Shown here: positions 5,155-55,035 of the stretch, in pieces
Numbering within the stretch: position 1 is the first letter of the stretch
How the letters are laid out: every line of letters starts with the position of its first letter
Origin: Clostridia bacterium
GTDB taxonomy: Bacteria; Bacillota; Clostridia; CAKSNL01; HGM11501
Length of the DNA stretch: 64,000 nucleotides
Direction of reading: 5' to 3'
NCBI GenBank assembly: GCA_045545475.1
Contig: JAZQAZ010000023.1
Span: 72,387-136,386 of the forward strand
Notes under the pieces: generated by a model
Databases searched by the model: none
Told to the model about the DNA's origin: nothing
Seen by the model: only the letters and a program-made list of their open reading frames with translations
Translations under genes and position numbers: made by a program

Positions 5155-5188
5155 CAATTAAAATCGCTGTTATCAAGGAGGATTCATA

Positions 5189-34071: not shown

Positions 34072-35364
34072 ATGTTGAAGATTTTAGGCATCCACTTTAT
34101 TGGTGGAATACTGGCTGTGACTACAAGAGAAATTGCTGTGTTAATTCCCGAAAACATAAAATTGGAATTACATATTGTAACAAGTATTATTATGGCAATA
34201 TATTTTATATGGGCAGGATACTTCTTAAGAAACGAAAGCCTTCATAAGACCATCGTGCTGTTGCAAATATTTGTATATTCAGGACATTTTCTGTTTTTTC
34301 TCGGTGAATCAGCATATAGATTTTTACGTGTTGCCACCGGCGGAAGCGTTGTATGGAATCGTATTCACGAGCAGGTTTTAACACTTGAAAAACTCTCATA
34401 CACGCTAACATATTTCCTGACTTTTTTCATTTTCCCTGTGCTTATTATTGCAGGCAGAACTATAGCGGGTAAGCCTCTTAAAATTAACATAAAAAAAGAT
34501 GTGGGCAATACCCTTAAAATTCTCCTCTGCACTTTTACGGCAAGCACTGTTTATCCTGTTTCCTCTTTCTTTATGGACCGGTTTGATGAATCGGGCGATA
34601 TTATTACAGCATACATTTCACTGTTTGCCGTAATCGCAATATTGTTCGTTGGCGGAATTGCCTTAAGAAAGATTGAATGGTCAAAAATCTGTTTTATAAT
34701 GTTCATCTCTTCCCTCGTCGGCATCACATTTACAATGTACATAACAAAAAGCCTTGCCAATGCACTTTCCGGCGGAGGAATGGTGATAAATTTATTTTTT
34801 GAAACAGTTATCGGCATAGAAACCAACTATACCGAAATGCCTTTACTTCCGCTGATTTTTGTTCTTGCCGGACACTTTACAGGCAACCGTATCTTAGCTA
34901 ACACCGCTTTTGAAAAAAGATCACCCGGAAAACTCAAGCATATATCTCAGGCAGTATTAATGCAGCTTGCAGGAGGTTTAATTGTTTTCTATATGAGAGA
35001 GTTGGCTCTAATGATAACCTCCGAAAGCATAAGAATGGCAGCCTTTATCGTTATCAGTCTTTTTATGCTCCTTTATTATGTATGGATTGGTCATTTTTTC
35101 AAAGGAAAATCCTTTTATTCGGCTTGTTCTGTAATCCTGATAATGACATTTATCGGATTTTCAACTGAAATATTTACAACCGAAATATACCGATATTCAA
35201 CCTGCCTTACCGGCAGCGGTTCTATATGGATTGGCGTTTTGAACAGATTGTTCTCGGGCATAAGATATCATTATCATATCGTAATTTCATTGATGATTTT
35301 ATGTATGGCTTTCGGCTATATAATTAGCAACAAGAGAAATAAAGATGCAAAAGAAGGCCGGTAA
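34072..35364 (+). CDS. Polytopic membrane protein with three internal ~140-aa repeats
   Basis: About 12 TM helices; repeats 1 and 3 share GG....RE.A..I..E.I, Y..W.G.F, and TG.(G)S..W. Confidence 0.65.
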   Translation: MLKILGIHFIGGILAVTTREIAVLIPENIKLELHIVTSIIMAIYFIWAGYFLRNESLHKTIVLLQIFVYSGHFLFFLGESAYRFLRVATGGSVVWNRIHEQVLTLEKLSYTLTYFLTFFIFPVLIIAGRTIAGKPLKINIKKDVGNTLKILLCTFTASTVYPVSSFFMDRFDESGDIITAYISLFAVIAILFVGGIALRKIEWSKICFIMFISSLVGITFTMYITKSLANALSGGGMVINLFFETVIGIETNYTEMPLLPLIFVLAGHFTGNRILANTAFEKRSPGKLKHISQAVLMQLAGGLIVFYMRELALMITSESIRMAAFIVISLFMLLYYVWIGHFFKGKSFYSACSVILIMTFIGFSTEIFTTEIYRYSTCLTGSGSIWIGVLNRLFSGIRYHYHIVISLMILCMAFGYIISNKRNKDAKEGR

Positions 35365-35369
35365 AAACC

Positions 35370-35397
35370 ACACCCCGAAGCAAAAGCTTCGGGGTGT
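35370..35397. terminator. Bidirectional terminator
   Basis: ACACCCCGAAGC-aaaa-GCTTCGGGGTGT; inverted copy at 39714..39741. Confidence 0.85.
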
Positions 35398-35403
35398 TTA
35401 ATT

Positions 35404-36279
35404 TTATTCATCCATCAGGCTCGCAAGATACTTTGCGGTTTCTGCTTCAAACTTCAAAAACATTTCGGAAAGATGGAGAGGCATTTTAGAAAAGCCCGTT
35501 GCACCCGACTCTAAAGATAAAACGCCTTTGTAGCCGATTTCCTTAAGTGCATCCATAAATTCATACCACACACACGAACAAAGGAAGGGCACCTGATGGG
35601 TGTCGTCCCACGCCCCTCGGTTGTCGTGAACGTGAAGGCAGAAAAGCTTTTCATTTGCCACCTTCACAGCCTCGGGAAGATTAAGCTTCATTGATAAAAC
35701 GTGTCCCGTATCAAGGCAGATTCCCACGTTAGGCATATTAATTTCATCAACAAGCTTTCTTAAGTTTTCCGTTCTTGCAAGGGAGATATTTCGAAATGGC
35801 AGGTTTTCTATTGCCACATTTATTCCGCACTCCTTTGCATAAAGACCAACTTCGGTAAATACCTTTACGTTCATGCTAAAGGCAAAAGCTTCATCCGTTT
35901 CCGTGCCCCAGCCCTCGGGCATTACGGGGTGATAAACAACGGTATCTGCCCCAAGTAAGCTTGCCCCGTCTATGCACTTTTTCATATGCATAACATTTTT
36001 CGGGCGGTCTTCTTCAATTTCGTCGTGTACGGGCCAGGGGCCGTGCACCTGATTTATATGTATTTCCGCTTTTTCCGCAAGGTGTCTTTCTTCCGTGAGA
36101 AATTCCTTAAATTCTTCATCGGAGGCTTCGGCGATTAAAAAGCTTTTATAGTATGCAAGTTGCTGAAAGTCGGATGCACCATAACCTAAAGCCTTCATTT
36201 TCTCATAGTCGGTGTGCCGTCTTTTTCCGTCTTCCCTTTCTTTTTCAAGAAATTCGCTGTTTGTTTTTCCGATTATCAT
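35404..36279 (-). CDS. Sugar phosphate isomerase/epimerase (AP endonuclease 2 TIM barrel)
   Basis: AIENLP, CLDTGH, LHVHDN, D.HQ.P, SLE. Confidence 0.85.
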   Translation of the reverse strand: MIIGKTNSEFLEKEREDGKRRHTDYEKMKALGYGASDFQQLAYYKSFLIAEASDEEFKEFLTEERHLAEKAEIHINQVHGPWPVHDEIEEDRPKNVMHMKKCIDGASLLGADTVVYHPVMPEGWGTETDEAFAFSMNVKVFTEVGLYAKECGINVAIENLPFRNISLARTENLRKLVDEINMPNVGICLDTGHVLSMKLNLPEAVKVANEKLFCLHVHDNRGAWDDTHQVPFLCSCVWYEFMDALKEIGYKGVLSLESGATGFSKMPLHLSEMFLKFEAETAKYLASLMDE

Positions 36280-36297
36280 GAATTTTCCTCCTTTTGT

Positions 36298-36348
36298 CTT
36301 CATTTTAGCATAAGTGATGCCTTAACACAAGCATTTTTACATAAAAAC
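36298..36348 (-). promoter_or_regulatory. Sigma-A promoter, copy 1 of a 51-bp direct repeat
   Basis: Minus strand TTGTGT-17 bp-(TG)cTAAAAT; 49/51 identical to 39665..39715. Confidence 0.7.
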
Positions 36349-36469
36349 TTTCTTGATTTGTCGTCGCTATACTGGTAAAATATATGGTATAAATGATATG
36401 GTGCTACCTGCTCCATCCCCTATTTATTTAATTGCAGATGCACGATAGATGGATTAAGGAGGAATTTTA

Positions 36470-36796
36470 ATGTACGATGCTACAAAAGACCCCAATGCTT
36501 TCAAGCCTATAACCGAAAATCCTATTATTCTGGATTTTACAGGATGTAAACATTGGCACGAAATTCACTTAATCTTAAAAACAAAATTCGGTTTGCCCGA
36601 TTATTACGGAAAAAACTGGGATGCTCTATGGGATTGTTTAAGGGACTTATGGATAAATGATGGATATACAAAAGTAAACATATACGGCTTTATGTCCCTT
36701 CCGGAGGATTTAAGAGAATATTGCAAAGCCATGCTTGAAATTTTTGAAGATGTTCACGAAGAAACACCAAATGTGGTTTTCGAGCTTATTTCTTAA
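36470..36796 (+). CDS. Barstar family RNase inhibitor (orphan)
   Basis: FGLPDYYGKNWDALWDCLRD signature. Confidence 0.9.
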   Translation: MYDATKDPNAFKPITENPIILDFTGCKHWHEIHLILKTKFGLPDYYGKNWDALWDCLRDLWINDGYTKVNIYGFMSLPEDLREYCKAMLEIFEDVHEETPNVVFELIS

Positions 36797-36801
36797 GACA
36801 T

Positions 36802-36830
36802 AAAAAGCGGATGCATCTGCATCCGCTTTT
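36802..36830 (+). terminator. Rho-independent terminator
   Basis: AAAAGCGGATGCA-tc-TGCATCCGCTTTT. Confidence 0.8.
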
Positions 36831-36851
36831 CCTTATTTATCTGGCAAAGTT

Positions 36852-36911
36852 GACAAAAAAGGTACGTCCCCTTTTGTCCTTCTCGTCCCCTTTTGTCCTT
36901 CTTCTTTTGTC
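36852..36911. repeat. 27-bp palindromic REP-like element plus partial copies
   Basis: GACAAAAAAGGTACGTCCCCTTTTGTC followed by CGTCCCCTTTTGTC and CTTTTGTC. Confidence 0.9.
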
Positions 36912-36917
36912 TGTGCG

Positions 36918-37427
36918 CTAAATTGTTGAAAATGCCAGCAAGGAAATCAAATCATTATAGTATATCCAGTAAAACATATTAATTTTGATTGATTCAGTCA
37001 CTTCATCCAAAACTTTTTGCCTATCGTTATCACCTATGTTAATTATAACTTGTCCAAAACACTTACTTTTCTCTTCCGGTTTATATTCATAATAAGAATA
37101 GAAATCCATACCGTTCTTGAAATAAACAACATCATATTTAGGAATATCAAGCCAATAATCCTCTATAAAAAGCATTTTTGATGTACTGTTTTTTATTTCG
37201 AACCTATAAGCAATAATTAAAAATTTTTCTGGTTCTTCTAAAATCTTTTGCGTCTTGCTGTTTTTGGGCAACGAGTAACCATAGTAATTCTCATAATCTT
37301 GCAGCAATATTTCTTCACAAGATACACTTATTCTTTTCAATGGATACAACCAAGCTGTAGATATAATTGTCAAACAGACAATCAAAACAAAAATAATCAA
37401 ACCTAAAACTATTTTTTTATATTTCAT
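36918..37427 (-). CDS. Hypothetical membrane-anchored protein (putative immunity)
   Basis: N-terminal signal/TM; AT-rich; lies in the cassette array. Confidence 0.6.
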   Translation of the reverse strand: MKYKKIVLGLIIFVLIVCLTIISTAWLYPLKRISVSCEEILLQDYENYYGYSLPKNSKTQKILEEPEKFLIIAYRFEIKNSTSKMLFIEDYWLDIPKYDVVYFKNGMDFYSYYEYKPEEKSKCFGQVIINIGDNDRQKVLDEVTESIKINMFYWIYYNDLISLLAFSTI

Positions 37428-37564
37428 TTTGCATCATCCTTAAGTTTTACTACTATAAGTGAATCATCCTTTAATATATCATCATTTACCGGGGCATTTA
37501 TTCTATCTTTAGAATGGGCAGAATATAGTATTGTCCCATCTTCTGCAAAGCTCACATTATAAAT
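37424..37564 (-). pseudogene. C-terminal gene remnant, amidase-domain-like
   Basis: Startless frame IYNVSFAEDGTILYSAHSKDRINAPVNDDILKDDSLIVVKLKDDAK*; its TGA overlaps the ATG at 37427. Confidence 0.5.
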
Positions 37565-37592
37565 CTATCAAGGTTTCCAAGTGGCACCTGTT

Positions 37593-37686
37593 AAGACACG
37601 AAAACCGTCCTCTGTCTTTTTAAGTTGACAAAAAAGGTACGTCCCCTTTTGTCTTCGTTACTTTTGTCTTCTTTTATACCCTTTGT
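37593..37686. repeat. REP-like element cluster
   Basis: AAGACACGAAAACCGTCCTCTGTCTT (37593), exact 27-mer at 37627..37653, plus CTTTTGTC partials. Confidence 0.88.
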
Positions 37687-38253
37687 CTATTTGTCTTCGC
37701 CTATAATCCAGTTTCTTTCCCATAAAACGAAATTAAACCTGGTTCCATAGTAAATTTCATCCAAAAGAGCAACTAACAAAGCAATCAGTTGTTTGTCCAT
37801 TTCATAACATTCTACAGTATATGTATATCCTCCCATAACAGACAAGTTTGATCTTTGAGCATTTAATATCAGCTTATCATTCTTTTTTAATGAAAATTTA
37901 TTTCCGCTATGAAAACAAGGTTTGTACTCCTCTTCTCCTATCAATATATTTTTCTTATTTTTACAAAAGCCTGCCAAAGATTTCCCAATTTCAGTATCAT
38001 TCTGAAAAATCCTGTATACAGGATAGGAGCGCAACGGATATATAGGCACAATCATCCCCAAGGGAGCCAGAATACATTTTAATAATTTATTTGTCTGTTT
38101 GCAACTATATGATATTGTTTGATTATTATCTGTGACCTTAAATTTCTTACACAGCATTCCAAATGTATAATTGCTTTTTATCGTGTATTCTTCGCTTCCG
38201 ACAGTATACACGATACCCTTTACTCCCAATTTCTTTTCTATGACAAACATCAT
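37687..38253 (-). CDS. Hypothetical protein (possible LURP-one/Tubby-like fold)
   Basis: Start moved to the ATG at 38253 (GGAG RBS); beta-rich with C-terminal helix LIALLVALLDE. Confidence 0.55.
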   Translation of the reverse strand: MMFVIEKKLGVKGIVYTVGSEEYTIKSNYTFGMLCKKFKVTDNNQTISYSCKQTNKLLKCILAPLGMIVPIYPLRSYPVYRIFQNDTEIGKSLAGFCKNKKNILIGEEEYKPCFHSGNKFSLKKNDKLILNAQRSNLSVMGGYTYTVECYEMDKQLIALLVALLDEIYYGTRFNFVLWERNWIIGEDK

Positions 38254-38299
38254 AATACTTTTCTCCTGTAATCCGGTTTTTCCGTTAGTAACAAAAGTG

Positions 38300-38324
38300 G
38301 ACAAAATAAGTGCATCCCCAAGTG
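38300..38324. repeat. Degenerate REP-like element
   Basis: GACAAAATAAGTGCATCCCCAAGTG directly after the stop at 38331. Confidence 0.55.
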
Positions 38325-38330
38325 ATCTTC

Positions 38331-38675
38331 TTATTCAGCCAATCCTATGTCAATCACTTTTCCATCCCTTTTTCGAAATTCCACATATATTACGCCACCA
38401 CTCGTAACCCACATGGTTCCTTCCTCTGTACAGCCTGTAGTCTGCACTACATTACGAACTCTCCATGTTTTACCAAGGTCTTCTGCGTCATAGGTAAATC
38501 CATAATTAAAGGAGTCAGGAAAACGTTCTTCCAATAAGGCCATTCCAATTTTCAGTGCTGTTTCTTTGCTATCTATAACATTATATTCTTCTCCATTTTT
38601 ACTTACTGTAAAAATAACAGCTGCAGCAACCACAAATATACTCACTATACATATAATCAACCATCTTTTTTTCAT
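38331..38675 (-). CDS. NTF2-fold immunity protein (YbbC/YhhH-like)
   Basis: Signal/TM; ETALKIG..W.V..GG.IYVEF.K.DGKVI pattern. Confidence 0.7.
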   Translation of the reverse strand: MKKRWLIICIVSIFVVAAAVIFTVSKNGEEYNVIDSKETALKIGMALLEERFPDSFNYGFTYDAEDLGKTWRVRNVVQTTGCTEEGTMWVTSGGVIYVEFRKRDGKVIDIGLAE

Positions 38676-38740
38676 ACAAGCACCTCACTTTCCGCTTTAT
38701 CAGAAAAAATCACCTTAATTCTTTCTTCAGTACCATTTTA

Positions 38741-38765
38741 ACAAAAAGTTATGTCCCCTTTTGTC
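38741..38765. repeat. REP-like element
   Basis: ACAAAAAGTTATGTCCCCTTTTGTC overlapping the stop at 38764. Confidence 0.75.
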
Positions 38766-39198
38766 ACTTCATCCCCGTGTACCATTCAGTAACCATTCCT
38801 GTCGCTGATGATACAGTCACAATAGTAGGACCTCCTATTGTAGGAGACTCAGTTTCCTGTGTTGTACACCAGAGCTTTTCTTTTGAATCATAATAAACAA
38901 TTATCTTATCAATACTATCGTCATTCGGCTGCAACAACCAATAATAATGCCGTTCCACCAGTCTCGCCACTTGTTTAGGCGTTTTAGCTATTTCTCCAAC
39001 ATATTCATCCCATATACCACCATATGTATGACAAACTTCTAAGAATTCAGAAGAATCGAATTCTCCTCTTATGTATTCATATCTAAGGCCGGGAATAAGT
39101 TCATCTGTTACCCAATTCTTATAGTACCATATGCCGCTCCCAAAAGCCAACACCATAACAATAGCTACAATTGTAATAAGCTTAAAATGTTTTTTCAT
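38764..39198 (-). CDS. Membrane-anchored protein, NTF2-fold-immunity-like C-terminus
   Basis: Signal/TM; ..YYD....W...GG..IVTVS..TG.V similar to the neighbouring gene. Confidence 0.55.
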   Translation of the reverse strand: MKKHFKLITIVAIVMVLAFGSGIWYYKNWVTDELIPGLRYEYIRGEFDSSEFLEVCHTYGGIWDEYVGEIAKTPKQVARLVERHYYWLLQPNDDSIDKIIVYYDSKEKLWCTTQETESPTIGGPTIVTVSSATGMVTEWYTGMK

Positions 39199-39267
39199 AA
39201 ATATCCCTCCTATAATTTCGATACTATTTAAGAGCCTACTTTTTCCGGTATCTTTTTATGTTCTGCA

Positions 39268-39645
39268 TCACCTAGTTGCTATAGAACGAAGAAATCTCCC
39301 TTGTTTCAAATAAACCTCCGAAACATCATAAAGTTTATCATCTATAATTTCGATTTCAATGTTTTCATTTATTTTTGTGCTTATATCATCTGCGCAAAGC
39401 ATAATATATAGCTTGTTATTTCGCACCACATATTTGTACCCGGTATAATCACCATACGTACTATTGCCTATAACATAGCCTGAAAATAAAAGCTTATTAT
39501 CAACAAGTTCCACGTTATTTATGTGCATTACTCTCGGACTCATAATATATTTATATTCATTATAGGTTTTAATTTTAATAAAGTTTATACATACAATCAC
39601 AATCAAAATTGCAGAAATGAACATCAATAATAATTTTCGTTTCAT
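39268..39645 (-). CDS. Hypothetical secreted protein (putative immunity)
   Basis: N-terminal TM, AAGGAG RBS, first gene after the duplicated promoter. Confidence 0.6.
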   Translation of the reverse strand: MKRKLLLMFISAILIVIVCINFIKIKTYNEYKYIMSPRVMHINNVELVDNKLLFSGYVIGNSTYGDYTGYKYVVRNNKLYIMLCADDISTKINENIEIEIIDDKLYDVSEVYLKQGRFLRSIATR

Positions 39646-39664
39646 AAATATCTCCTTCCGTTAA

Positions 39665-39715
39665 CTTCATTTTAGCATAAGTGATGCCTTAATACAAGCA
39701 TTTTCACATAAAAAC
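39665..39715 (-). promoter_or_regulatory. Sigma-A promoter, copy 2 of the 51-bp direct repeat, heading the immunity array
   Basis: Minus strand TTGTAT-17 bp-(TG)cTAAAAT. Confidence 0.7.
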
Positions 39716-39741
39716 ACCCCGAAGCTTTTGCTTCGGGGTGT
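39714..39741 (-). terminator. fba terminator
   Basis: ACACCCCGAAGC-tttt-GCTTCGGGGTGT, followed by T-tract on the minus strand. Confidence 0.85.
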
Positions 39742-39749
39742 TAAATCAA

Positions 39750-40778
39750 TTAACCAAAAATTGTCTTTCCTGCGCTCTCTAAGTCGTTACAAGCTTCAAC
39801 AACACGGGAAGCCATACCCTCTTCGCCCTTCTTTAAGTAAGAACGGGGATCGTACATCTTCTTGTTACCAACTTCGCCTTCAATCTTAAGCATACCATCG
39901 TAGTTTTTGAACATATGGTCAACTACGGGCTTGGAGAAAGCGTACTGTGTATCTGTGTCGATGTTCATCTTGATTACGCCATAGCCAAGAGTTTCCTTGA
40001 TTTCTTCCTTGGAAGAACCGGATCCGCCGTGGAATACTAAGAAGAATCCCTTATCAGCGCCGTATTTAGCCTTTAATGCATCCTGTCCGTTTTTAAGGAT
40101 GGAGGGATTAAGCTTTACGTTACCGGGCTTATATACGCCGTGAACGTTACCGAAGGTTGCTGCAACGGTGTATGTTCCCTTAATATCCTTAAGAGCATCA
40201 TAAACCTTTAACATATCTTCGGGAGTTGTGTATAACTTATCGTTAGATACGCCTTCGTTGTTCTGACCGTCTTCTTCGCCGCCTACAACGCCGGTTTCAA
40301 CTTCCAAAACGATGTCGTTTGCTGCACAGCGAGCGAAAAGCTCCTTTGCAACAGCGATGTTTTCATCAAGAGTAATGTCGCTTCCGTCGAACATATGGCT
40401 GTTGAAAAGATTGGGACGGCCTTCTGCTCTTCTTCTTTCGGTTTCAGCAATCAAGGGAAGCATAAAGGATTCAAGCTTGCCCTTTGTGCAGTGGTCTGTG
40501 TGAAGTGCAACATATACGTTGTACTTTTCAGCCATTAATCTAACGTGGTCGGCAAGGCTTATTGCACCAAGTACCTTATCCTTTACGTTAAGACCGGATG
40601 CAAACTCAGCTCCGCCAACGGAAACCTGCACGATACCGTCAGACTTAGCGTCAGCAAGACCCTTAAGTACTGCGTTTGCAGTTTCCATAGAGGAAACGTT
40701 TACAGCGGGATATGCATAGTGATTGTCATATGCCGCTTTCATCATATTCAAATACTGTTCATAATTTACTACAGGCAT
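39750..40778 (-). CDS. fbaA: Fructose-bisphosphate aldolase class II
   Basis: LHTDHC, SHMFDGS, GVVGGEEDG, FGNVHGVYKPG, VFHGGSG, KMNIDTD. Confidence 0.95.
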   Translation of the reverse strand: MPVVNYEQYLNMMKAAYDNHYAYPAVNVSSMETANAVLKGLADAKSDGIVQVSVGGAEFASGLNVKDKVLGAISLADHVRLMAEKYNVYVALHTDHCTKGKLESFMLPLIAETERRRAEGRPNLFNSHMFDGSDITLDENIAVAKELFARCAANDIVLEVETGVVGGEEDGQNNEGVSNDKLYTTPEDMLKVYDALKDIKGTYTVAATFGNVHGVYKPGNVKLNPSILKNGQDALKAKYGADKGFFLVFHGGSGSSKEEIKETLGYGVIKMNIDTDTQYAFSKPVVDHMFKNYDGMLKIEGEVGNKKMYDPRSYLKKGEEGMASRVVEACNDLESAGKTIFG

Positions 40779-47677: not shown

Positions 47678-47792
47678 CCTTTCAATAAAGATAGTATATC
47701 TATTATTCCCAATCTGAATACAAAAAAGTAAATTTATTTTTTAAATGTGTTTTTATTTGCTAATATCGACATTTTTGACGTTCCGTAAAAAA

Positions 47793-47821
47793 ACCCAAGG
47801 ACGCATTTCGCGTCCTTGGGT
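47793..47821 (-). terminator. Terminator (identical copy at 50557..50585)
   Basis: ACCCAAGGACGC-atttc-GCGTCCTTGGGT with an adjacent A-tract. Confidence 0.85.
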
Positions 47822-47826
47822 GCTAA

Positions 47827-48180
47827 TCAACCTAATGGATTTTTTACATTTCCTTCTTCATCAAATATAACTTTTTTCCCGGTTTTACTATGATAAAAGT
47901 TACGTGTGCCATCTTTGCCTTCAGCAAAAGTCAATTCTGTCCCTACCGGCATATCAAATATAGATAAAACTGCAGGCTCGATTTCAAACATTGTCCCAAA
48001 ATCACATACTGTCATATTTTTAGGGTTGCTCAAAAAATCATTGGTGTCAATATCTGATAAAAATACCCACCCATTATCAACATCATGTTTACTTTTTTCC
48101 CTTATACACCATCTTAATTTTCCTTTTCCATTCAACAAATTGTTAGAGAGTATCGACCCTCCCATTCCCATGCTCGCCAT
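47827..48180 (-). CDS. Immunity protein (DUF2185/Imm33-like)
   Basis: RE.....DNGWVFLS..DT.DF..NP.N..V, EPAV..IFDMPVGT. Confidence 0.75.
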   Translation of the reverse strand: MASMGMGGSILSNNLLNGKGKLRWCIREKSKHDVDNGWVFLSDIDTNDFLSNPKNMTVCDFGTMFEIEPAVLSIFDMPVGTELTFAEGKDGTRNFYHSKTGKKVIFDEEGNVKNPLG

Positions 48181-48307: not shown

Positions 48308-48349
48308 GACAAAAGGGGACGAGACAAAAAAGGTACGTCCCCTTTTGTC
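48308..48349. repeat. REP-like element (partial inverted copy plus full 27-mer)
   Basis: GACAAAAGGGGACG then GACAAAAAAGGTACGTCCCCTTTTGTC (48323..48349). Confidence 0.9.
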
Positions 48350-48391: not shown

Positions 48392-49297
48392 CTAGTCTTT
48401 TTCTTGGATTTTGGCATATTCTGTTGGTGGTATACCCGTCACTTTTTTAAAAAGTCTTGAAAAATAATGAACGGAGTTAAATCCGAGTATGTCAGAAATC
48501 TCGCTGAAATTATATTTGTTAAGACAAATGAGCTTTTTTGCTTTTTCGATTTTCAGTATGTTAAAATAGGCAACAGGGCCATTGCCGGTAAAATTTCGGA
48601 AAAGATATTTAAGCTTTGAAACGCTCATAGCTCCTGCAAGAGCAAAATCCTCCAAAGTAAATTTTTTGCTGATATTATCTTCCATAAATTTTACAATCTG
48701 TTCAAATTCGTCAGTCAGGATACTATGTTTCTTTTCTTCCCGTTGATTCATTTGTTGCGTTTTTGAAATATCTGAAAGGAAAAGCTCCAATCGTTTTTTA
48801 AAATATAATATTTTGTATTCGGAAATATCCTTTTTTAATGTCATTCTGGAAACGCCGTTAACTGTTTTTCTTGTAAAGTATTTTATACCTGTTTCTGCAA
48901 TTTCCAGAAAAATATTTTTTTGCATTGAATTAAGAGTAATCGGACGGTTATATATTTTCTGAAGCTCAGTACTGTCTGTATCAAAGCTCAATATATAGCT
49001 TGTGGCATCAGAACCTTTATCTCCCATCGTATGAAAATGCCCCGGAGCATAAATCATAATCTGACCGGGATTTAAGGTTATATTCTCATTGTTCAGTATA
49101 AGATTATGAACCCCCGATTTGATAAATATAAGCTCAGGAAAGTTGTGAGATTCTCCCTTTCCCGATACGGTAGTTTTAAAATCAATATAAAAACATGAAA
49201 AAATCCCGTTTACTTTGATAGCATCTTCAAAATTCAAAGCTTTATATTCCAAACCTATACTCTCCTTTGATTTTAATCTTTTTGTGCAAAAAATCAA
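48392..49297 (-). CDS. AraC family transcriptional regulator
   Basis: GESHNFPEL cupin; ISDILGFNSVHYFSRLFKKVTGIPPTEY; real start may be the TTG at 49252. Confidence 0.9.
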   Translation of the reverse strand: MIFCTKRLKSKESIGLEYKALNFEDAIKVNGIFSCFYIDFKTTVSGKGESHNFPELIFIKSGVHNLILNNENITLNPGQIMIYAPGHFHTMGDKGSDATSYILSFDTDSTELQKIYNRPITLNSMQKNIFLEIAETGIKYFTRKTVNGVSRMTLKKDISEYKILYFKKRLELFLSDISKTQQMNQREEKKHSILTDEFEQIVKFMEDNISKKFTLEDFALAGAMSVSKLKYLFRNFTGNGPVAYFNILKIEKAKKLICLNKYNFSEISDILGFNSVHYFSRLFKKVTGIPPTEYAKIQEKD

Positions 49298-49401
49298 CCA
49301 TTTAATCTAAATACAAAACACATTTTTATTGTTAAAATAGGCATAGATAAATGATATCCTAATTTTTACTTTTTGTCAACAATATGGAGGAGGAAGAAAG
49401 T

Positions 49402-50475
49402 ATGAATAAATTAAAACTTGGTCTTATAGGCTGTGGAAAAATGATGGCTCAGCATGTTAATGGTGTGAAAAAGAGTGAAAATGTAGAAATCGTTGCTGTT
49501 TGCGATATTATTGAGGAAAATGCAAGGGTAGTTGCAGAAGAATTGGGAAACAATGCAAAGATTTTTACAGATTACAGAGATTTGGTTTCTGAGGTTGATG
49601 CTGTTTTAATAGCTCTGCCTCACGATCTTCATTTTCAGTGTGGAATGTATTTTGCAATGCATGATAAACACATTCTGATGGAAAAGCCTCTTTGCAATTC
49701 AGAAAGGGAATGTGAAATTCTTATTGAAACTTGCGAAAAGCGTAACCTTAAGCTTATGTCTGCTTATCCGGTTCGTTTCTGGCCTGGTGTTGTTAAGCTT
49801 AAAGAACTGGTTGATTCGGGGGAATTCGGAGAAATTATTCAGATGTCAATATGGACCGAACAGCTTACCGGTGCGGATATGACATATCTTGATATTGAAA
49901 GAAACTGGCTTGTCACAAGCAGGTTAGGCGGAGGACAGCTTTTCAGCCATGGCTGCCATTATATTGATATTCTGCTTTGGTTCCTGGGAGAGCCTGTGAC
50001 AGGGGCACATATGGGTACAAGAAACGGAACTCCATGGATGATTGAAGAGGGCACAAGTGCTCTTGTAATGAAATTTGAAAACGGTGCTGTCGGTTATCAT
50101 GGTGCAACATGGGGGGCAAGGGGAACCCGACTTGGCTATGATTTCCAAATTCAAACAGAAAAGGCTCTTTTGGAATATGATCACTCCGGTGGTGAGGTAA
50201 GAATTTACAGGAAATCTGCCGTTCATACTCCTGGGCAAGAGGATAAAAAAGAAAATTACGAGGTTGTATGGAAAAGAACAGAGGAAAAATCAAAAAACAC
50301 CCAGTATGAAATCAATCACTTTACAGACTGTGTTCTTAACGATAAAACACCTCTTACAAATGGTAGAGCAGCACTTCAGGGATTAAGAGTAATCTGGGAA
50401 CTGTACTTGGCAGAGAAAAACAACAGGCTTGCAAATCTTAAAGGTCTTGGCTTAGGTGCTGTTGAAAACAAATAA
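49402..50475 (+). CDS. Gfo/Idh/MocA oxidoreductase
   Basis: GLIGCGKM, ALPHDLH, LMEKP, GGG.LFSHGCHYID. Confidence 0.92.
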   Translation: MNKLKLGLIGCGKMMAQHVNGVKKSENVEIVAVCDIIEENARVVAEELGNNAKIFTDYRDLVSEVDAVLIALPHDLHFQCGMYFAMHDKHILMEKPLCNSERECEILIETCEKRNLKLMSAYPVRFWPGVVKLKELVDSGEFGEIIQMSIWTEQLTGADMTYLDIERNWLVTSRLGGGQLFSHGCHYIDILLWFLGEPVTGAHMGTRNGTPWMIEEGTSALVMKFENGAVGYHGATWGARGTRLGYDFQIQTEKALLEYDHSGGEVRIYRKSAVHTPGQEDKKENYEVVWKRTEEKSKNTQYEINHFTDCVLNDKTPLTNGRAALQGLRVIWELYLAEKNNRLANLKGLGLGAVENK

Positions 50476-50497: not shown

Positions 50498-50535
50498 GAC
50501 AAAAGGGGACGTACCTTTTTTGTCTCCCTTTTGTC
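50498..50535. repeat. REP-like element, inverted relative to 48323
   Basis: GACAAAAGGGGACGTACCTTTTTTGTC is the exact reverse complement of the 27-mer. Confidence 0.9.
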
Positions 50536-50556
50536 TCAGGCGAACCGCAAAAAAAC

Positions 50557-50585
50557 ACCCAAGGACGCATTTCGCGTCCTTGGGT
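50557..50585 (-). terminator. Terminator (copy of 47793..47821)
   Basis: ACCCAAGGACGCATTTCGCGTCCTTGGGT. Confidence 0.8.
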
Positions 50586-50630
50586 ACTTATAAGAAGAAC
50601 TAAATTGTTACGATGTTGTCTATACTATGA

Positions 50631-50659
50631 TACCAAAAAATGTACGTCCCCAAGTGGTA
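50631..50659. repeat. REP-like element variant
   Basis: TACCAAAAAATGTACGTCCCCAAGTGGTA, 6 bp past the stop of the small immunity gene. Confidence 0.75.
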
Positions 50660-50665
50660 TTTCAA

Positions 50666-50845
50666 TTATTCGTCAATATCGTTGTGGTATTTACAGCTTT
50701 TACACCTTTGGCGTTGTTCTTCATTCCATTTGATACCTTCTGGTAAAAGTGTGGATTTCACATAACCATCTGCTACATCACATACAATGTAGCAATCGGC
50801 ACCATTGATGTTGCCACCCTTTACCGGACAATATACTGTTTTCAT
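50666..50845 (-). CDS. Small Cys-rich putative immunity protein (59 aa, not in the ORF track)
   Basis: MKTVYCPVKGGNINGADCYIVCDVADGYVKSTLLPEGIKWNEEQRQRCKSCKYHNDIDE; ATG overlaps the toxin-CT TGA. Confidence 0.75.
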   Translation of the reverse strand: MKTVYCPVKGGNINGADCYIVCDVADGYVKSTLLPEGIKWNEEQRQRCKSCKYHNDIDE

Positions 50846-51423
50846 CTAAATACCCCCACTATTTTATCAGTTTTTGCATCAAAATCTTCTTTGGAGAAGA
50901 TAGTATTAACTTTGCCATCTTCATTCAAATATGCTGCACCATCCAAAGAATAATAATTGATGTGTTTTCCATCCCATTTGTTTCTCGTAATGCTGCATTT
51001 TGCCGATGCAATATATTTCTTCGCATCATCAATTGTGCATCCATGATTAAATGCATGGTCATTTAAAGCTTCAAGACCACTAATATCAATCTGCAATGGC
51101 GGAACTCTAATAATTCCAAATTCGCCTATATTTTTTATTTTGATATAAAGTTTATAATCCGTTTCAGTTGCATCAGGAACTCTCTGTTTATAATCCTTAT
51201 AAGTTTCTGCATTTAACTTTTCATATATATGATTTTTTTCTTCTTCCATTATACCACTTTCCCCGATGCTGTCAAGATAGTCGGTGGCTTCGATTAAGAG
51301 TTCTAAGTCCTGTCTGTTGCCGTTCTTCCGCTGCTCAAGACCATATTCGTATGCTTCTACTTCCTTTTCTCCGTCATACTGCAATCCCGTTGTACGGCTC
51401 ACCGCAACTGATATATCCTCCGC
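50842..51423 (-). pseudogene. Orphan toxin C-terminal cassette
   Basis: First ~59 codons near-identical to the junction of the 1015-aa toxin, then a different CT (NDHAFNH..INYYSLDGAAY..TIF); no convincing RBS/start. Confidence 0.8.
51248..51275 (-). promoter_or_regulatory. Intragenic sigma-A promoter at the toxin junction (copy 1)
   Basis: Minus strand TTGACA-16 bp-TATAAT with TG extended -10. Confidence 0.75.
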
Positions 51424-51522: not shown

Positions 51523-51556
51523 TATAGGGTTCGACATCTATGGCGAACCGCAAAAC

Positions 51557-51582
51557 AAAAAGGACGCAGGATGCGTCCTTTT
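51557..51582 (-). terminator. Terminator after the toxin-immunity pair
   Basis: AAAAAGGACGCA-gga-TGCGTCCTTTT. Confidence 0.8.
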
Positions 51583-51613
51583 TTGCCATTAAAATCAATT
51601 ATATCTTATTCAA

Positions 51614-51994
51614 CTAATTAATTTTTACTGCAATTGATTTGCACCCCCTCTGTATAGCCTCTTCAAACCAAGAACAGAGCAAATCATATACTGCATATGT
51701 TTCTTTGAAGTCAAATTCTTTAACTTTATAGCTAATTAAATCCTTAGCATATTCATACAGATTTGTAACAAAACCTTCTCCCTCTGTATCGAATGCCCCT
51801 TCACACTGGTTGTAATCTCTTGTAAACCCAATCCAGCCTCTGCCATCATCTGGAGGATTCCCAAATATATCGTCCCAAAACCCGTCCCAAATATGTAAAA
51901 TTTCCATATTAATATCTTTTGCGCATAATATAATTTCGGGTTCACCCTCGTAACCATCATAATACTTATAATTATTCATCTTTCCTGTGTCCAT
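51614..51994 (-). CDS. Cognate immunity protein (putative)
   Basis: Acidic 126 aa; overlaps the toxin 3' end; YYDGYEGEPEI..HIWDG motif. Confidence 0.7.
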   Translation of the reverse strand: MDTGKMNNYKYYDGYEGEPEIILCAKDINMEILHIWDGFWDDIFGNPPDDGRGWIGFTRDYNQCEGAFDTEGEGFVTNLYEYAKDLISYKVKEFDFKETYAVYDLLCSWFEEAIQRGCKSIAVKIN

Positions 51995-54900
51995 TATCTA
52001 ACCACTCCTTTTGCTGTTTTGTCGCTGTTCCGTTATGACGTGCATTTATAGCTTTTCTCCACTCGCTCTTAGCAATCCATAAGTTTTTGCCTACTAATAC
52101 CTCTTTTACTGCACCGCGATGATTTTCACCGTAGCCAATTCCGGGAATCCTTCTTTCCACAACCCAGGAAATGCCTTGTTCCTTCGGTGCTCCCGGAGTT
52201 CTGGTATGCCATCTGCTCGTATATTTATAGCCATCTCTTTCCCATGTGTACTTTATTTGGTTATATCCGTTTTTCTCTTGTATATCATATGTTGCATTTT
52301 CCGGAATTTCAACAGGTGAGCGCTTTGCTATTTCTCTCGCATTTTTCTCCAGATATTCAATACTCGGAATTTCTTTTGACGATTGTCTTTCTTCACCTTT
52401 CATTATACCACTTTCCCCAATGCTGTCAAGATAGTCGGTGGCTTCGATTAAGAGTTCTAAGTCCTGTCCGTTGCCGTTCTTCCGCTGCTCTAAGCCATAT
52501 TCGTATGCCTCTACTTCCTTTTCTCCGTCATACTGCATCCCTTTCGCTTGGCTTGCCGCAACTGATATATCTTCTGCTTTTGCTCCCGCTTTGGCAAATA
52601 TCCTCTCCGTTGCTGACATATTCCTTACCCTTGATGAGGCTTTTGCACTATACGGCTTTCTTACCACATTGGAATAATAATCGCCAAAGGTCATTTTCCC
52701 TGTCATTTCCACTTGCTCTTGCACTTCTGACTTGCCGTTAGTGTTATCGGAATATGTAGTTTTCGCTCCTTCCGGGCTTGTCTGCTGTACGGTTTCCGTT
52801 TCACTTATTCCCAAAAGCCAGTTATATGACTCTGCATCTATGGTGCCTTCCTCAAACATAGTTACCGCAAGCTCTCCGACATCGGCATTTGTGACCTTTT
52901 GCCCGGATTCTGCCTTTTCCACAAGCTTATTCACCTTTTGCCTTGTCTCGGTTTCCTTTGGCATTGACTTTGCGTACTCTATCAATTCATTCGCTTTTCC
53001 GCCTTCGGTTATTGCTTTTCCCACACTTGTGTTGCTGTTGTACTGTATACTTGCATCTGCTCCCCCGAAGAACAAACCTGATACAAAGCCGGATAAAGTT
53101 TCCATTCCTACTTCTCCTGCCATATCAACATATGCCATTCCGCTTGCTTCTTCATAGCTGAATCCTTCGCTCATATAACCTCTGACAAGCTTGTTAAACT
53201 GACTTTCTCCACCCATCGTTACATTGTCTGTAACGATATTGGCAAGACTTGTACAAAATTCTTCCGACGCTTCAATTCCTCCCTGCTTAAGTATGGTCAT
53301 AAATACATCGGTAAGGCTTTCTACAACTTTTGACTTAAAGAGGTTATCTATGCCTATTTTTTCAAATGCCGCTTCAAAAATACCTGCAGATATTCCTTTA
53401 ATCAATATCTGACTGTTGCTTCCTCCATCTATAGCTGTCTTTCGCCCTTCAGAAACCGCCGCATTCATTCCTAGAAATGCAACTCCGGCACCGCCCATCG
53501 GCATAACTGCTGCAGAATCCGCAATACTCATTCCCGTGTTGTACACAAAATTCCAAAAGGGATTTTCTATGTTTTCGCTTGTTGTTCCTCTGACAGCCTC
53601 GGAAGTGTACTGTGATTTAAAGCCAAGAGCGTAAGGATCAAAACGCTCTTCGCCCACCGATTCGGTTAAAAATGTGCCAAATGCTTTAGGTGCATTTACC
53701 AGATTAGAAACAACTGTTTCGGCGTTGGCCCCAAAAGGATTCTTTATAGCTTTTTCACGTGCTTTTTCGGTTTCTTTTTCGTATATCCGCTTGTTTAGTT
53801 CAGGTTCTAATGCCCTTAAATATAACGTACATTTCGAATATCCTCCGGTATTTTCTTTTGGACTTAGCAAAGCATAATAACGGAATATATTTTTCTCCTC
53901 TTCTGTCATTTCTGCTATTCTTTCAGCCCATTCTTCATAATAGGACGTATCAGTAGAATAAGATGCTAACGATACATCAGCAATTACATTGTTTATGTCT
54001 GCATGTCCGTTAATTATATCAAGAACCCATACATCATCAGGTGTGCCGAAATAACTACCGCTGTCCATAAGTCTTTTACGCTTATCTGCTATTATCCTTA
54101 GGTAAGCGGGGTCTTCTTTTGCCGGAGTTTCAAACTCTGCAATAAATTCCCTCTGCTTTGCTTCGTCTGCCAAGCCCTTCCAATAGTTCTGCTCTTCCGA
54201 AAAGCTTCTTGCTGCATTGAGCCTGGCCTGAACTGTCCCTGCACTGACACCCAATTTCACAGAATTAGGTGTAGCAATTCCATTCCCGGAATAATGCCGT
54301 ACATATCTCCACGCCTCATCCGCCTTCTCTCCGGCATTATCTGCTTTCCACCTAAGCACTTTTTCGTTTGATGTTTCATATCCTTTACCTTTGAGATATT
54401 CATACTCCTCCAGAAGGTCTGTATTGCCCGTAACGGCATATTCCTCCCACAGTTTGCTTGATGCGTTTCTGTAGCCCTCATGGTTCAAACCCGCATACTT
54501 TTCCTCAAATCCCTTTTCCGATGGGATGTATGTAATATCCTGTTCTTTTTTTGTTTCTTTCTGCGTTTTTTCTTTGTCTTCCGCTTTCTTTTTCTCCACA
54601 AAATACCCCATAGATTTATTAGCTGAAAGCGGCTCATTAAAATTCACCGGAGAATGACTTGTTGTTTTGTTATCAAACTTTGTTACCGTCCCGGAAGCCT
54701 TAGTTTTTATGACCTTTTCATCTGCATTTTTTTCCTTAGTAACAGGAACATTAAATACATCGGAGTATGACCTTTTCCACGGAGATTTTTCTTCTGCAGT
54801 TTCCTTTTCCTCCGTATTTACAGAAGTGGCATTTGTCTTTCTTCTTTTAGCACCTTCCTCATACCATAAAGCGTTGTTTTTTCCCGAGGAAAAGGAAGAC

Positions 54901-54995
54901 TCCTTATTCTCCGACGCCTCCTTTTCATACGAAGAATTGCTTTTTCGTCTTTTGTACCCTTCCGTATAATCCTCTGTTCTGACTTTTATACCCAT
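51972..54995 (-). CDS. Large polymorphic toxin (ejection/internal-virion-like body + Ntox30-like RNase CT)
   Basis: Ala/Gly-rich hydrophobic middle (EASEEF..), junction shared with the orphan cassette, CT with RWHTRTPGAP and a terminal His; start 54995 by GGAGGGG RBS (ORF track 55019). Confidence 0.75.
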   Translation of the reverse strand: MGIKVRTEDYTEGYKRRKSNSSYEKEASENKESSFSSGKNNALWYEEGAKRRKTNATSVNTEEKETAEEKSPWKRSYSDVFNVPVTKEKNADEKVIKTKASGTVTKFDNKTTSHSPVNFNEPLSANKSMGYFVEKKKAEDKEKTQKETKKEQDITYIPSEKGFEEKYAGLNHEGYRNASSKLWEEYAVTGNTDLLEEYEYLKGKGYETSNEKVLRWKADNAGEKADEAWRYVRHYSGNGIATPNSVKLGVSAGTVQARLNAARSFSEEQNYWKGLADEAKQREFIAEFETPAKEDPAYLRIIADKRKRLMDSGSYFGTPDDVWVLDIINGHADINNVIADVSLASYSTDTSYYEEWAERIAEMTEEEKNIFRYYALLSPKENTGGYSKCTLYLRALEPELNKRIYEKETEKAREKAIKNPFGANAETVVSNLVNAPKAFGTFLTESVGEERFDPYALGFKSQYTSEAVRGTTSENIENPFWNFVYNTGMSIADSAAVMPMGGAGVAFLGMNAAVSEGRKTAIDGGSNSQILIKGISAGIFEAAFEKIGIDNLFKSKVVESLTDVFMTILKQGGIEASEEFCTSLANIVTDNVTMGGESQFNKLVRGYMSEGFSYEEASGMAYVDMAGEVGMETLSGFVSGLFFGGADASIQYNSNTSVGKAITEGGKANELIEYAKSMPKETETRQKVNKLVEKAESGQKVTNADVGELAVTMFEEGTIDAESYNWLLGISETETVQQTSPEGAKTTYSDNTNGKSEVQEQVEMTGKMTFGDYYSNVVRKPYSAKASSRVRNMSATERIFAKAGAKAEDISVAASQAKGMQYDGEKEVEAYEYGLEQRKNGNGQDLELLIEATDYLDSIGESGIMKGEERQSSKEIPSIEYLEKNAREIAKRSPVEIPENATYDIQEKNGYNQIKYTWERDGYKYTSRWHTRTPGAPKEQGISWVVERRIPGIGYGENHRGAVKEVLVGKNLWIAKSEWRKAINARHNGTATKQQKEWLDNGHRKDE
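52402..52429 (-). promoter_or_regulatory. Intragenic sigma-A promoter at the toxin junction (copy 2)
   Basis: Minus strand TTGACA-16 bp-TATAAT with TG extended -10. Confidence 0.75.
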
Positions 54996-55035
54996 ATTAA
55001 GAAATTCCCCTCCTTGCATAGCTTAAGCTTTATTC

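Follow-up and report, generated by a model that had tools for sequence, protein, structure and literature searches.

We analysed a 64,000-nucleotide (nt) stretch of a Clostridia bacterium genome (contig JAZQAZ010000023.1, hereafter the window), which carries an array of five small co-oriented genes and a toxin/immunity island, and in both of which a 27-nt hairpin sequence, the 27-mer GACAAAAAAGGTACGTCCCCTTTTGTC, recurs. We propose, with a probability of roughly 0.6, that this 27-mer is a non-autonomous hairpin site of a TIRYT-type HUH/Y1 transposase and that gene cassettes were exchanged inside such hairpins. The observations that carry this reading are the pairing of enzyme and hairpin in related genomes, the structure of the hairpin, the variability of the arrays and the positions of the breakpoints within them. 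On comparative grounds the 27-mer is very probably the cognate site of this Y1 enzyme family, and exchanges inside hairpins probably shaped these arrays; that the enzyme runs a true cassette-shuffling mechanism appears doubtful.

The 27-nt hairpin and its probable Y1 transposase

Four exact copies of the 27-mer were present in the window, three on the + strand (36852, 37627, 48323) and one on the - strand (50498), and none was matched in 100 shuffles of the window (expected number of exact copies, 0), in agreement with a preliminary description of this DNA made from its letters alone. Read on the gene strand, the repeat is GACAAAAGGGGACGTACCTTTTTTGTC. The same description had called it a 27-bp palindrome; the repeat is there, and its palindrome is imperfect, having 11 pairs of which two are G.U/G.T wobbles and a loop ACGUA, all on the gene-sense strand only (the opposite strand has two A-C mismatches in place of the wobble pairs). 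The hairpin begins at a stop codon or a few bases beyond it, and, as first described, four of the five array genes are followed by a copy, 0-40 nt downstream. Besides the exact copies, we found a degenerate type-A copy with five mismatches to the 27-mer (38741-38767; 38743-38765 by repeat finding, 91% over 23 nt) and two other diverged copies at 38300-38327 and 50631-50658 (38302-38329 and 50634-50661 by repeat finding). Extra left arms precede complete hairpins, GACAAAAGGGGACG followed by AGAAG ahead of the 36852 copy and GACAAAAGGGGACG followed by A ahead of the 48323 copy, and both partial arms in the window stop right after GGGGACG. Moreover, 48321-48349 and 50498-50526 form a perfect 29-nt inverted repeat.

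With up to five mismatches allowed, the 27-mer has seven matches in the source genome (G000, a 2.74-Mb assembly of 50 contigs, 95% complete). Five of them are exact, of which contig C3 contributes one and the window four; the remaining two are the degenerate window copy and, on C4, a variant with three mismatches. This number rules out a genome-wide high-copy repetitive extragenic palindromic (REP) element. All hairpins with a GGGGACG core in G000 amount to about 12. The preliminary description had named genome-wide scatter and an invariant array as the findings that would contradict it; what we found were five exact copies in 2.74 Mb and array contents that differ. The hairpin is present in 5 of the 14 genomes of the taxonomic family with 1-7 copies each (G000 5, G001 7, G002 2), the exact 27-mer occurs in nine stretches of six other Clostridia assemblies, and a metagenome scan for the exact 27-mer gave two loci only. 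Between species the 27-mer is 100% identical and its flanks are 73-95% identical. A 5' GTAG (GT[AG]G) tetranucleotide was not found in the 5' flanks of the copies, which are not conserved; the conserved motif is GGGGACG, inside the hairpin.

In relatives, copies of the 27-mer, exact or with one mismatch, are inverted on both sides of an open reading frame (ORF) of 245 amino acids (aa) (loci L004/L052 and L008/L033; the ORF lies at L004 3207-3944 and L008 4026-4763). Its product is a PF01797 protein (Y1_Tnp, E 1e-16), which scores 68-80 bits with the NCBIfam model 'REP-associated tyrosine transposase' (RAYT; cut-off 80) against 20-29 bits with the IS200 model. In an alignment of 17 sequences, H60 and H62 of the HUH motif and Y120, N124 and P125 of Y---NP (RYIHQNP) are invariant in all 17, and the roughly 120 residues of the C-terminal extension close with a conserved stretch resembling a helix-turn-helix (HTH), SIRQxERxTGISRGxI, with weak Pfam HTH matches in the C-terminal region (HTH_5 in four of the 17, HTH_23 in three, HTH_28 in two). 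Homologues at 57%, 42% and 43% identity within the genus have flanking hairpins with different stems and the same GGGGACG core (GCCACTTGGGGACGTACTTGTTTTGGC, ACACAAGGGGACGGTTCTATTGTGT and GTGTCAAGGGGACGGTTCTCTTGACAC), and a second hairpin type of the window (50631; also on contig C26) matches GCCACTTGGGGACGTACTTGTTTTGGC. The guess that an HUH/RAYT-like Y1 transposase acts in trans is supported by a Y1 protein that the 27-mer flanks in relatives, by stems that co-vary and by the lack of the enzyme in G000.

A search of the window with PF01797 found no Y1 transposase, as had been stated before. Over the whole of G000 the PF01797 search gave only a 169-aa protein of another Y1 group (contig C30), which rules out a hidden cognate enzyme, and tblastn of G000 with five family members reached a best E of 8e-4, with short Y1 paralogues only. 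Three such paralogous Y1 HUH proteins of 168-178 aa are encoded in G000 (C30:129615-130124, C30:22369-22905 and C47:22264-22770); the short paralogues are about 20% identical to the 245-aa family, and no GGGGACG hairpins lie beside them. A search with the 245-aa protein gave homologues in 4 of the 14 family genomes (G004, G005, G006 and, as a fragment, G009).

The pairing of enzyme and hairpin extends through the class. Among 400 evenly sampled Clostridia genomes, 105 contain the 245-aa protein family, mostly in 1-3 copies, with six copies each in G157, G209, G309 and G346 (those of G309 near-identical), and at least 1,514 protein clusters match the family at E <=1e-30, under source names such as 'transposase', 'IS200-like' and 'RayT'. 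A GGGAC[GA] hairpin was found within 300 nt upstream of the gene at 31/31 loci (mostly 58-93 nt before the start) and an inverted hairpin downstream at 27/31 (mostly 20-40 nt past the stop), and the best inverted repeat contains a motif with the GGGAC[GA] core at most of 32 loci. When 50 flanking hairpins are aligned without gaps, all of them have GGGACG. Over a stem of ten pairs, 71.4% of cells are paired, compared with 55.4 +/- 1.5% after shuffling (45-53% with slid partners), and 85 cells are changed on both stem sides against 37.5 +/- 4.3 after shuffling; neither value was reached in 500 shuffles, and both figures overstate the number of events because locus copies and related genomes are not independent.

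Array contents and breakpoints

The array lies in an island between an aldolase and an isomerase gene. Five genomes of the genus have in common the aldolase terminator, a promoter with the first codons and the ribosome-binding site (RBS) of the isomerase gene, and have five different contents between promoter and isomerase RBS; an empty site was not found, since all five genomes with the isomerase gene carry some insert. In G001 the order is promoter, a 106-aa gene (sharing only its signal peptide with g125 of the window), hairpin, a 63-nt duplicate, hairpin, the g205 cassette (97.6% identity) and a chimeric site, followed by a terminator, a promoter, a truncated ORF, two hairpins and a polytopic membrane gene. 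In metagenome contig L039 it is g144, hairpin, another gene, hairpin, an aldolase 3' fragment with promoter, g125, hairpin and g114. G001 also has tandem duplications (L005 4001-4117, hairpin plus 63 nt; 5118-5185, hairpin plus 14 nt), which are probably real because they are shorter than the usual assembly k-mers.

The block of g205 homology between G000 and G001 extends from 38319, inside the upstream hairpin, to 37661, inside the downstream left-arm repeats; therefore, the cassette starts (5') with a right half-site and finishes (3') with a left one. In the hairpin upstream of g205 in G000, a left arm of type-B-like sequence meets a right arm of type A, and the site downstream of g205 in G001 is GACAAAAGGGGA joined to TGGTTCTCTTGAC, that is, a type-A left arm with a type-D right part, which cannot fold.

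Further joints were seen in k=31 contigs from four animal-gut sequencing runs of four studies, in which uncovered array parts were not counted; the contigs hold at most about half of the sampled array words. These joints lead from 36293 to 38328 (with 30 other letters between), from 38319 to 39602, from 38767 back to 36906 (giving the order g169, hairpin, g114) and from 39839 back to 36369, and loose ends lie at 36846/36852, 36879 and 37626. Among 14 breakpoints, nine (7/11 with near-duplicates merged) are within 8 nt of a hairpin or arm, sites that with their margins occupy 7.3% of 36200-39840 (binomial P about 1e-7 for the 14 and 3e-6 for the 11), the partial arms used in this count having been defined after the data were seen. 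Beside transposase genes, 7/19 partial left arms end exactly after GGGACG and 11/19 within 2 nt of that point, and partial left arms usually run straight into the start of another left arm. The earlier suggestion that the hairpins serve as cassette ends is supported by order and content that differ between genomes and samples and by breakpoints in the hairpins.

The hairpins also enclose a metabolic module of two genes. The exact copies at 48323 and 50498 bracket a gene for an AraC-family regulator and one for a Gfo/Idh/MocA oxidoreductase, a pair that lies inside the toxin/immunity island. The window segment 48393-50535 (AraC gene, oxidoreductase gene and right hairpin) recurs in metagenome contig L040 with 99.07% identity over 2147 nt. 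There the module has different neighbours, namely a DapA-like fragment, a GH28-like gene and a further AraC gene, and one flank is only 86.7% identical to contig C3 of G000. In L040 the module ends in a hairpin on one side and, on the other, in a perfect palindrome of two left arms joined at ACGT. Moreover, the interior of the hairpin is inverted in place (L040 3001-3027 against window 50498-50524), with the 7-bp stems fixed and the modules otherwise 99% identical. None of the other 13 genomes in the taxonomic family contains the module, and the G001 toxin island has a single hairpin at the corresponding place.

From these arrangements we suggest that the 27-mer would act as a terminal inverted repeat (TIR) or REP of a TIRYT-type transposase, and that one cassette would comprise a right half-hairpin, a 5' untranslated region (UTR), one gene and the left half of the next hairpin, a layout that would place past exchanges inside the hairpin, at or just after GGGGACG. 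A Y1 enzyme, provided in trans by an ancestor or a donor, would have nicked and rejoined hairpins on single-stranded DNA; the preferred nick would lie just 3' of GGGGACG in the loop, because partial arms end there and chimeric sites are joined at the core, and a second joint would lie at the 5' foot of the hairpin. Without the arrival of an enzyme, the hairpins of G000 would now be inert relics. Some of the joints and partial arms could also come from template switching that hairpins stimulate during replication. Only tentatively do we extend the proposal to TIRYT-type enzymes in general, which might nick the loops of GGGGACG hairpins on single-stranded DNA and join loop to loop, as a second, integron-like cassette route.

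Several results weigh against the proposal of hairpin exchange. No homologue of the 245-aa enzyme was found in G000, G001 or G002, though hairpins occur there. The aldolase island of G005 carries a single hairpin-less gene, even though this genome has a cognate enzyme, whose gene is inserted with a toxin-region gene on one side and an immunity-type gene on the other. There is one clear chimeric hairpin only. The array events are not independent, because the run data are k=31 contigs rather than reads and the genomes are related. Finally, signal-peptide codons (39599/39602, 38664), RBS/start regions and copies of the promoter and the aldolase 3' end contain other breakpoints, and therefore ordinary homologous recombination also acts here.

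Alternative explanations and known systems

The best-placed alternative regards the hairpins as passive passengers, either selfish repeats of REP or TIR type or leftovers of insertions, in fast-turnover islands that are shuffled by homologous recombination and horizontal transfer. The other sequences shared at breakpoints (signal-peptide codons, RBS/start regions and the 63-74-nt promoter plus aldolase 3' copies), the island of G005, which varies without any hairpin, and the absence of the enzyme from most hairpin-bearing genomes would all be expected of it. In addition, family members elsewhere in Clostridia sit beside ordinary genes: of 97 ORFs next to 29 such members, none matched immunity or polymorphic-toxin families (E <=1e-5), two loci had toxin-antitoxin genes (ParE, AbiEii) and roughly half of the ORFs matched nothing. 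However, types A and D share just a core of 7-9 nt, too short for RecA-type exchange, and yet the chimera is joined there; partial arms end preferentially right after GGGGACG; and the 27-mer has stayed identical across species between flanks that have not. We therefore rate passive carriage as a possible but rather unlikely account of the whole. The notion that an enzyme uses the hairpins to stockpile immunity genes, put forward in the preliminary description, is not supported: the hairpins are not immunity-specific, the 97 neighbouring ORFs gave no such match, and G005 combines the enzyme with a single hairpin-less gene. We saw no dedicated immunity-collecting function, and the link with immunity is most simply a property of the variable islands of this lineage.

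It is improbable that the hairpin is an RNA element only, that is, a 3'-UTR stem-loop, terminator or mRNA stabiliser travelling with its cassette. Copies do stand mostly just past stop codons in sense orientation, the two wobble pairs form on the sense strand only, and REPs act in this way according to passages of PMC3733652. Against this, none of seven terminator-like sites predicted in 35300-40000 coincides with a hairpin copy, which rules out a plain terminator, and canonical GC-rich terminators stand separately downstream of the hairpin (50551-50591, L002, L007). The stem has only two G-C pairs at its top and no free U-tract, copies around the transposase gene occur in both orientations, and a terminator would not stay identical across species and unrelated genes. 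A known RNA family was also ruled out, as the four weak Rfam matches were all far under the gathering scores.

The 27-mer could further be read as the core site of a tyrosine recombinase, integron-like or of the Xer/dif-module kind, with arms of 10-11 nt and a spacer of 5-7 nt. Its geometry resembles such sites, cassettes begin and end within it, and the rAID-1 arrays of Bacteroidales pair a XerD-family recombinase with repetitive intergenic sequences; but all five PF00589 genes of G000 lie on other contigs (C8, C10 twice, C20 and C40), none of the five adjoins a hairpin copy, and the gene that co-occurs and co-varies with the hairpin encodes a Y1 HUH enzyme. This reading is thus very unlikely, and the label 'integron-like' used earlier is not supported, no integrase being adjacent to the array. 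Equally remote is an operator function, in which GACAAAAGGGGAC units would bind a regulator of toxin/immunity islands: the units are iterated, direct and inverted, the C-terminal region of the transposase has its weak HTH matches and the upstream hairpin abuts the transposase promoter, but most copies lie behind genes and not ahead of promoters, copies mark homology breakpoints, and no regulator gene co-occurs with them in G000.

The enzyme-repeat unit itself is of a known kind, because it matches the descriptions of TIRYTs, subclass 2.1 and RAYT group 1 in the relevant parts of three papers. The TIRYT passages of Di Nocera et al. 2013 (PMC3733652) apply that name to RAYT-like genes with flanking inverted repeats and the name TIRtrons to the units, and state that many repeats share GGGGWSAS. 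In the portions of Quentin et al. 2018 (PMC6006769) on this group, TIRYTs are TnpA-REP subclass 2.1, the second largest subclass, with a C-terminal HTH-like domain and no REP-like structure, and 291/292 RAYT group 1 sequences of Bertels et al. fall in it. Bertels et al. 2017 (PMC5581495), in the sections on RAYT group 1, report it in Clostridia with low-abundance flanking 16-mers. To the extent covered by these passages, the likeness includes a Y1 HUH protein longer than classical RAYTs, Y---NP, a C-terminal extension that may be HTH-like, a gene between inverted repeats at fixed distances that share a G-rich motif, low copy number, a patchy distribution that includes Clostridia, and partial and dimeric copies. 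The motif here is GGGGACG(T/G), or GGGGACAG in two loci, with G and not A at position 7 of the GGGGWSAS quoted there, and the repeats are clear co-varying hairpins, unlike those of the subclass 2.1 passages. In the parts of the papers that treat TIRYTs, gene cassettes, chimeric sites, cargo modules and a biochemically tested member are not described. Accordingly, the co-varying hairpin and the G at position 7 are branch details, and what is new here are hairpins as cassette junctions in toxin/immunity islands, hybrid sites and the presumed loop nick.

With REPs, BIMEs (bacterial interspersed mosaic elements) and REPINs (REP doublets forming hairpins) and their RAYTs, such as E. coli TnpA-REP and the REPINs of Pseudomonas, our hairpins share an extragenic position, mostly close behind genes, an imperfectly palindromic form, a Y1 gene present once between inverted copies, repeats that outlive the gene, and doublets (C41, C4). 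They differ in having 5-12 copies per genome instead of hundreds, concentrated in variable islands, no 5' GTAG, and a conserved motif that occupies the loop and the upper end of the 5' arm. As in IS200/IS605 elements, a Y1 HUH enzyme would recognise imperfect hairpins on one DNA strand, non-autonomous derivatives exist, and one genome (G309) has six near-identical copies of a family member; unlike in those elements, whose end hairpins are on the same strand, the hairpins are inverted around the gene, and the REP-associated model gives the family proteins much higher scores than the IS200 model does.

On paper the array resembles integron cassettes: single genes without promoters of their own follow one promoter, a hairpin site starts from the stop codon, cassette boundaries lie inside the site, and order and content vary between strains. 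The attC sites of integrons are about 57-141 nt long, with an R''/L''-L'/R' architecture and extrahelical bases. Our sites are set apart from attC by their 27-nt length and conserved motif; IntI is lacking at the array, as attI and attC architecture appear to be, the associated enzyme belongs to another superfamily, and the hairpins are not confined to one array.

By analogy, the nearest functional parallels would be two. One is known from Bacteroidales (Ross et al., bioRxiv 10.1101/471110), where rAID-1 arrays consist of orphan immunity genes with a XerD-family recombinase and intergenic repeats 'reminiscent of integrons'. Like the present array, whose genes may be of the same orphan immunity type, they are AT-skewed and have repetitive intergenic sequences in gut bacteria, but here no recombinase stands at the array, the cognate enzyme is a Y1 transposase of other genomes, the phylum differs, and the immunity families are Barstar, Imm33 and, weakly, one NTF2-like gene. 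In marine picocyanobacteria, the text seen of a preprint (bioRxiv 10.1101/2020.03.09.984088) places TnpA-REP beside hypervariable prochlorosin genes and proposes a role in diversifying recombination, with causality left unresolved in a later note of its authors. On that account an enzyme likewise co-localises with a rapidly diversifying antagonism-linked gene family, the subclass, phylum and cargo being others. Our literature searches (the hairpin letters; polymorphic toxin with transposase and palindrome) gave nothing on the present element.

Subclass 2.1 TnpA-REPs or TIRYTs are among the commonest Y1 HUH proteins and are without a known role, and this locus gives a testable proposal that names a 27-nt substrate and a predicted nick after GGGGACG; the related genomes offer natural 'before and after' arrangements resembling the products of hairpin-to-hairpin exchange. 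If true, the proposal would explain the turnover of orphan toxin/immunity cassettes in gut Firmicutes, and integrons and the recombinase-linked immunity arrays of Bacteroidales would gain a counterpart based on HUH enzymes and single strands. If loops are joined to loops, gut Clostridia would turn over toxin, immunity and small metabolic modules in this way, and the arrays would be its products, reshuffled whenever a copy of the enzyme enters the cell. If the proposal fails, the locus would still illustrate cleanly how low-copy, REP-like relics persist in hypervariable islands after their transposase has gone.

Genes of the array and other hairpin loci

The hairpins and genes discussed above are collected in Table 1.

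Table 1. Hairpins, array genes and neighbouring features of the window (positions in the window; strand as annotated)
Feature	Position	Strand	Remarks
Exact hairpin with arms	36852..36910	-	Hairpin 36852-36878; left arm ending after GGGGACG 36884-36897; one more degenerate arm; joint 36906
Exact hairpin with degenerate left-arm repeats GAAGACAAA(A)G on its 5' gene-strand side	37627..37690	-	Hairpin 37627-37653; G001 homology ends 37661
Hybrid-looking hairpin	38300..38327	-	Left arm type-B-like (CACTTGGGGA), right arm type-A-like (TTTTGTC); joints 38319, 38328
Degenerate type-A hairpin	38741..38767	-	Folds at -9.3 kcal/mol; breakpoint 38765/38767
Left arm ending after GGGGACG plus exact hairpin, a 42-nt compound palindrome	48308..48349	-	Exact match, repeat finding
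Exact hairpin plus inverted partial arm, right end of AraC/oxidoreductase module	50498..50535	+	Terminator next, 50551-50591
Type-B hairpin ACCACTTGGGGACGTACATTTTTTGGT behind 59-aa toxin-island gene	50631..50658	-	Same type flanks the 57%-identical transposase in L034
Array head: promoter-like TTGTAT-17-TAAAAT (TG-extended, 39665-39700) and 5' UTR	39653..39715	-	Sequence reading; copy 1 of 63-nt direct repeat
g125, small anchored protein without family	39268..39645	-	ORF; different order in L039
g144, anchored, without family; stop TGA overlaps hairpin	38764..39198	-	L039 homologue directly behind promoter
g114, anchored, weakly NTF2-fold-immunity-like	38331..38675	-	PF15631 below cut-off
g205, no anchor, orphan; likely start ATG near 38253	37687..38304	-	97.6% identical cassette in G001, with other neighbours
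Broken coding sequence, about 200 nt; 44-codon ORF overlapping g169 start	37424..37626	-	Read by eye; stops in other frames
g169, anchored, without family	36918..37427	-	In run X11 followed by hairpin, then g114
Barstar-family gene (36470-36796) with own terminator (36803-36830), convergent on array	36470..36830	+	PF01337 E 5e-22; 87.5% DNA-identical paralogue on C26 beside type-B hairpin
Second promoter copy before isomerase gene	36286..36348	-	89% to 39653-39715; RBS region GACAAAAGGAGG (36290-36298) resembles hairpin left arm; joint 36293; from here the five genomes are homologous again
Imm33-family immunity gene beside AraC/oxidoreductase module	47827..48180	-	PF09951 E 3e-16
Cargo module: AraC-family regulator (-), Gfo/Idh/MocA oxidoreductase (+)	48392..50475		Pfam

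The five array genes all lie on the minus strand, and GC content is 32.8% in the array, lower than in the window (40.2%) or in the aldolase and isomerase genes on either side (about 44%); an N-terminal hydrophobic anchor was found in four of the five proteins. In these respects (co-oriented AT-rich genes, anchors in most products) the preliminary description was accurate. Its NTF2-fold-immunity-like gene is g114 (114 aa), which does match PF15631, though weakly (E 0.0017; 18.9 bits, under the cut-off of 26). The other four, g125, g144, g169 and g205, gave no Pfam match even at E up to 5, and immunity is unproven for them because of this; from its context, 'orphan immunity cassettes' is a reasonable label for the array. 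The 190-aa g205 protein was found in its own cluster only, among 5.8 billion proteins. The broken coding sequence beside g169 is possibly a toxin remnant. From the sequence, one promoter for the whole array is plausible, as no terminator is predicted inside the array; the TTGTAT-17-TAAAAT promoter at its head was not listed by a simple promoter scan and was inferred from the letters.

Direct copies of 63-74 nt of promoter and 5' UTR (36276-36348 and 39642-39715, 86-89% identical) bound the whole 3.37-kb block, and arrays of other genomes (L039 482-653; L020 180-220) themselves contain a repeated piece of the aldolase 3' end along with terminator and promoter. These copies look like the outcome of single-crossover circle integration or local duplication, which would be a second mechanism besides the hairpins.

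In the toxin island, the 1015-aa ORF at 51972-55019 had no Pfam match and has its pre-toxin region in common with a protein of G001 whose last domain is a deaminase toxin. The 186-aa ORF downstream (50842-51402) repeats 195 nt of the interior of the 1015-aa ORF (52388-52581) at 89%, a pattern suggestive of an orphan toxin C-terminal module with a recombination handle. A GC-rich terminator hairpin occurs here in three related copies (93%, 63%) at 47787-47827, 50551-50591 and 51550-51590, two of which bracket the Imm33 gene and the AraC/oxidoreductase module.

Copies outside the array had been said to occur only in toxin/immunity islands, with none seen in housekeeping DNA. The first statement is right for the position of the 48323/50498 pair, which encloses an AraC regulator and an oxidoreductase and not immunity genes; elsewhere in G000, the exact copy on C3 sits among surface-protein genes and a related doublet on C41 between housekeeping genes. 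A hairpin was also found after a methyltransferase gene in G001 (L031). The C3 hairpin (C3:16901-17081) carries along a 147-nt fragment of a toxin-gene region, and the same fragment abuts the hairpin in L001 and G002; the C3 hairpin also stands at the start of a 633-nt segment that is duplicated (85%) on that contig. A clean empty site for the C3 copy was not found in a search that gave many paralogous matches.

The C41 doublet (C41:51325-51410 of G000) is REPIN-like: some 40 nt separate two type-C hairpins (GACAAGGGGACGGTTCTATTGTC) of inverted orientation, and housekeeping-type genes lie on either side; the type-C cognate enzyme occurs in G004 and is absent from G000. On C4 of G000, a doublet of about 85 nt, formed by a GCCAAAAGGGGACGTGCCTTTTTTGGC hairpin and an inverted hairpin of a different type, occurs twice (12774-12860 and 14180-14270), each time behind a small gene of another toxin/immunity-type island. 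On C26 (16356-17425), between sugar-metabolism genes, a second Barstar gene converges with the gene of a 188-aa anchored protein, and a type-B hairpin separates the two, the same architecture as that of window 36470-37427. Finally, 35370-35399 and 39712-39741 are one 30-nt terminator hairpin, 100% complementary and 4.3 kb apart, which ends the + strand gene 34072-35364 and the aldolase gene.

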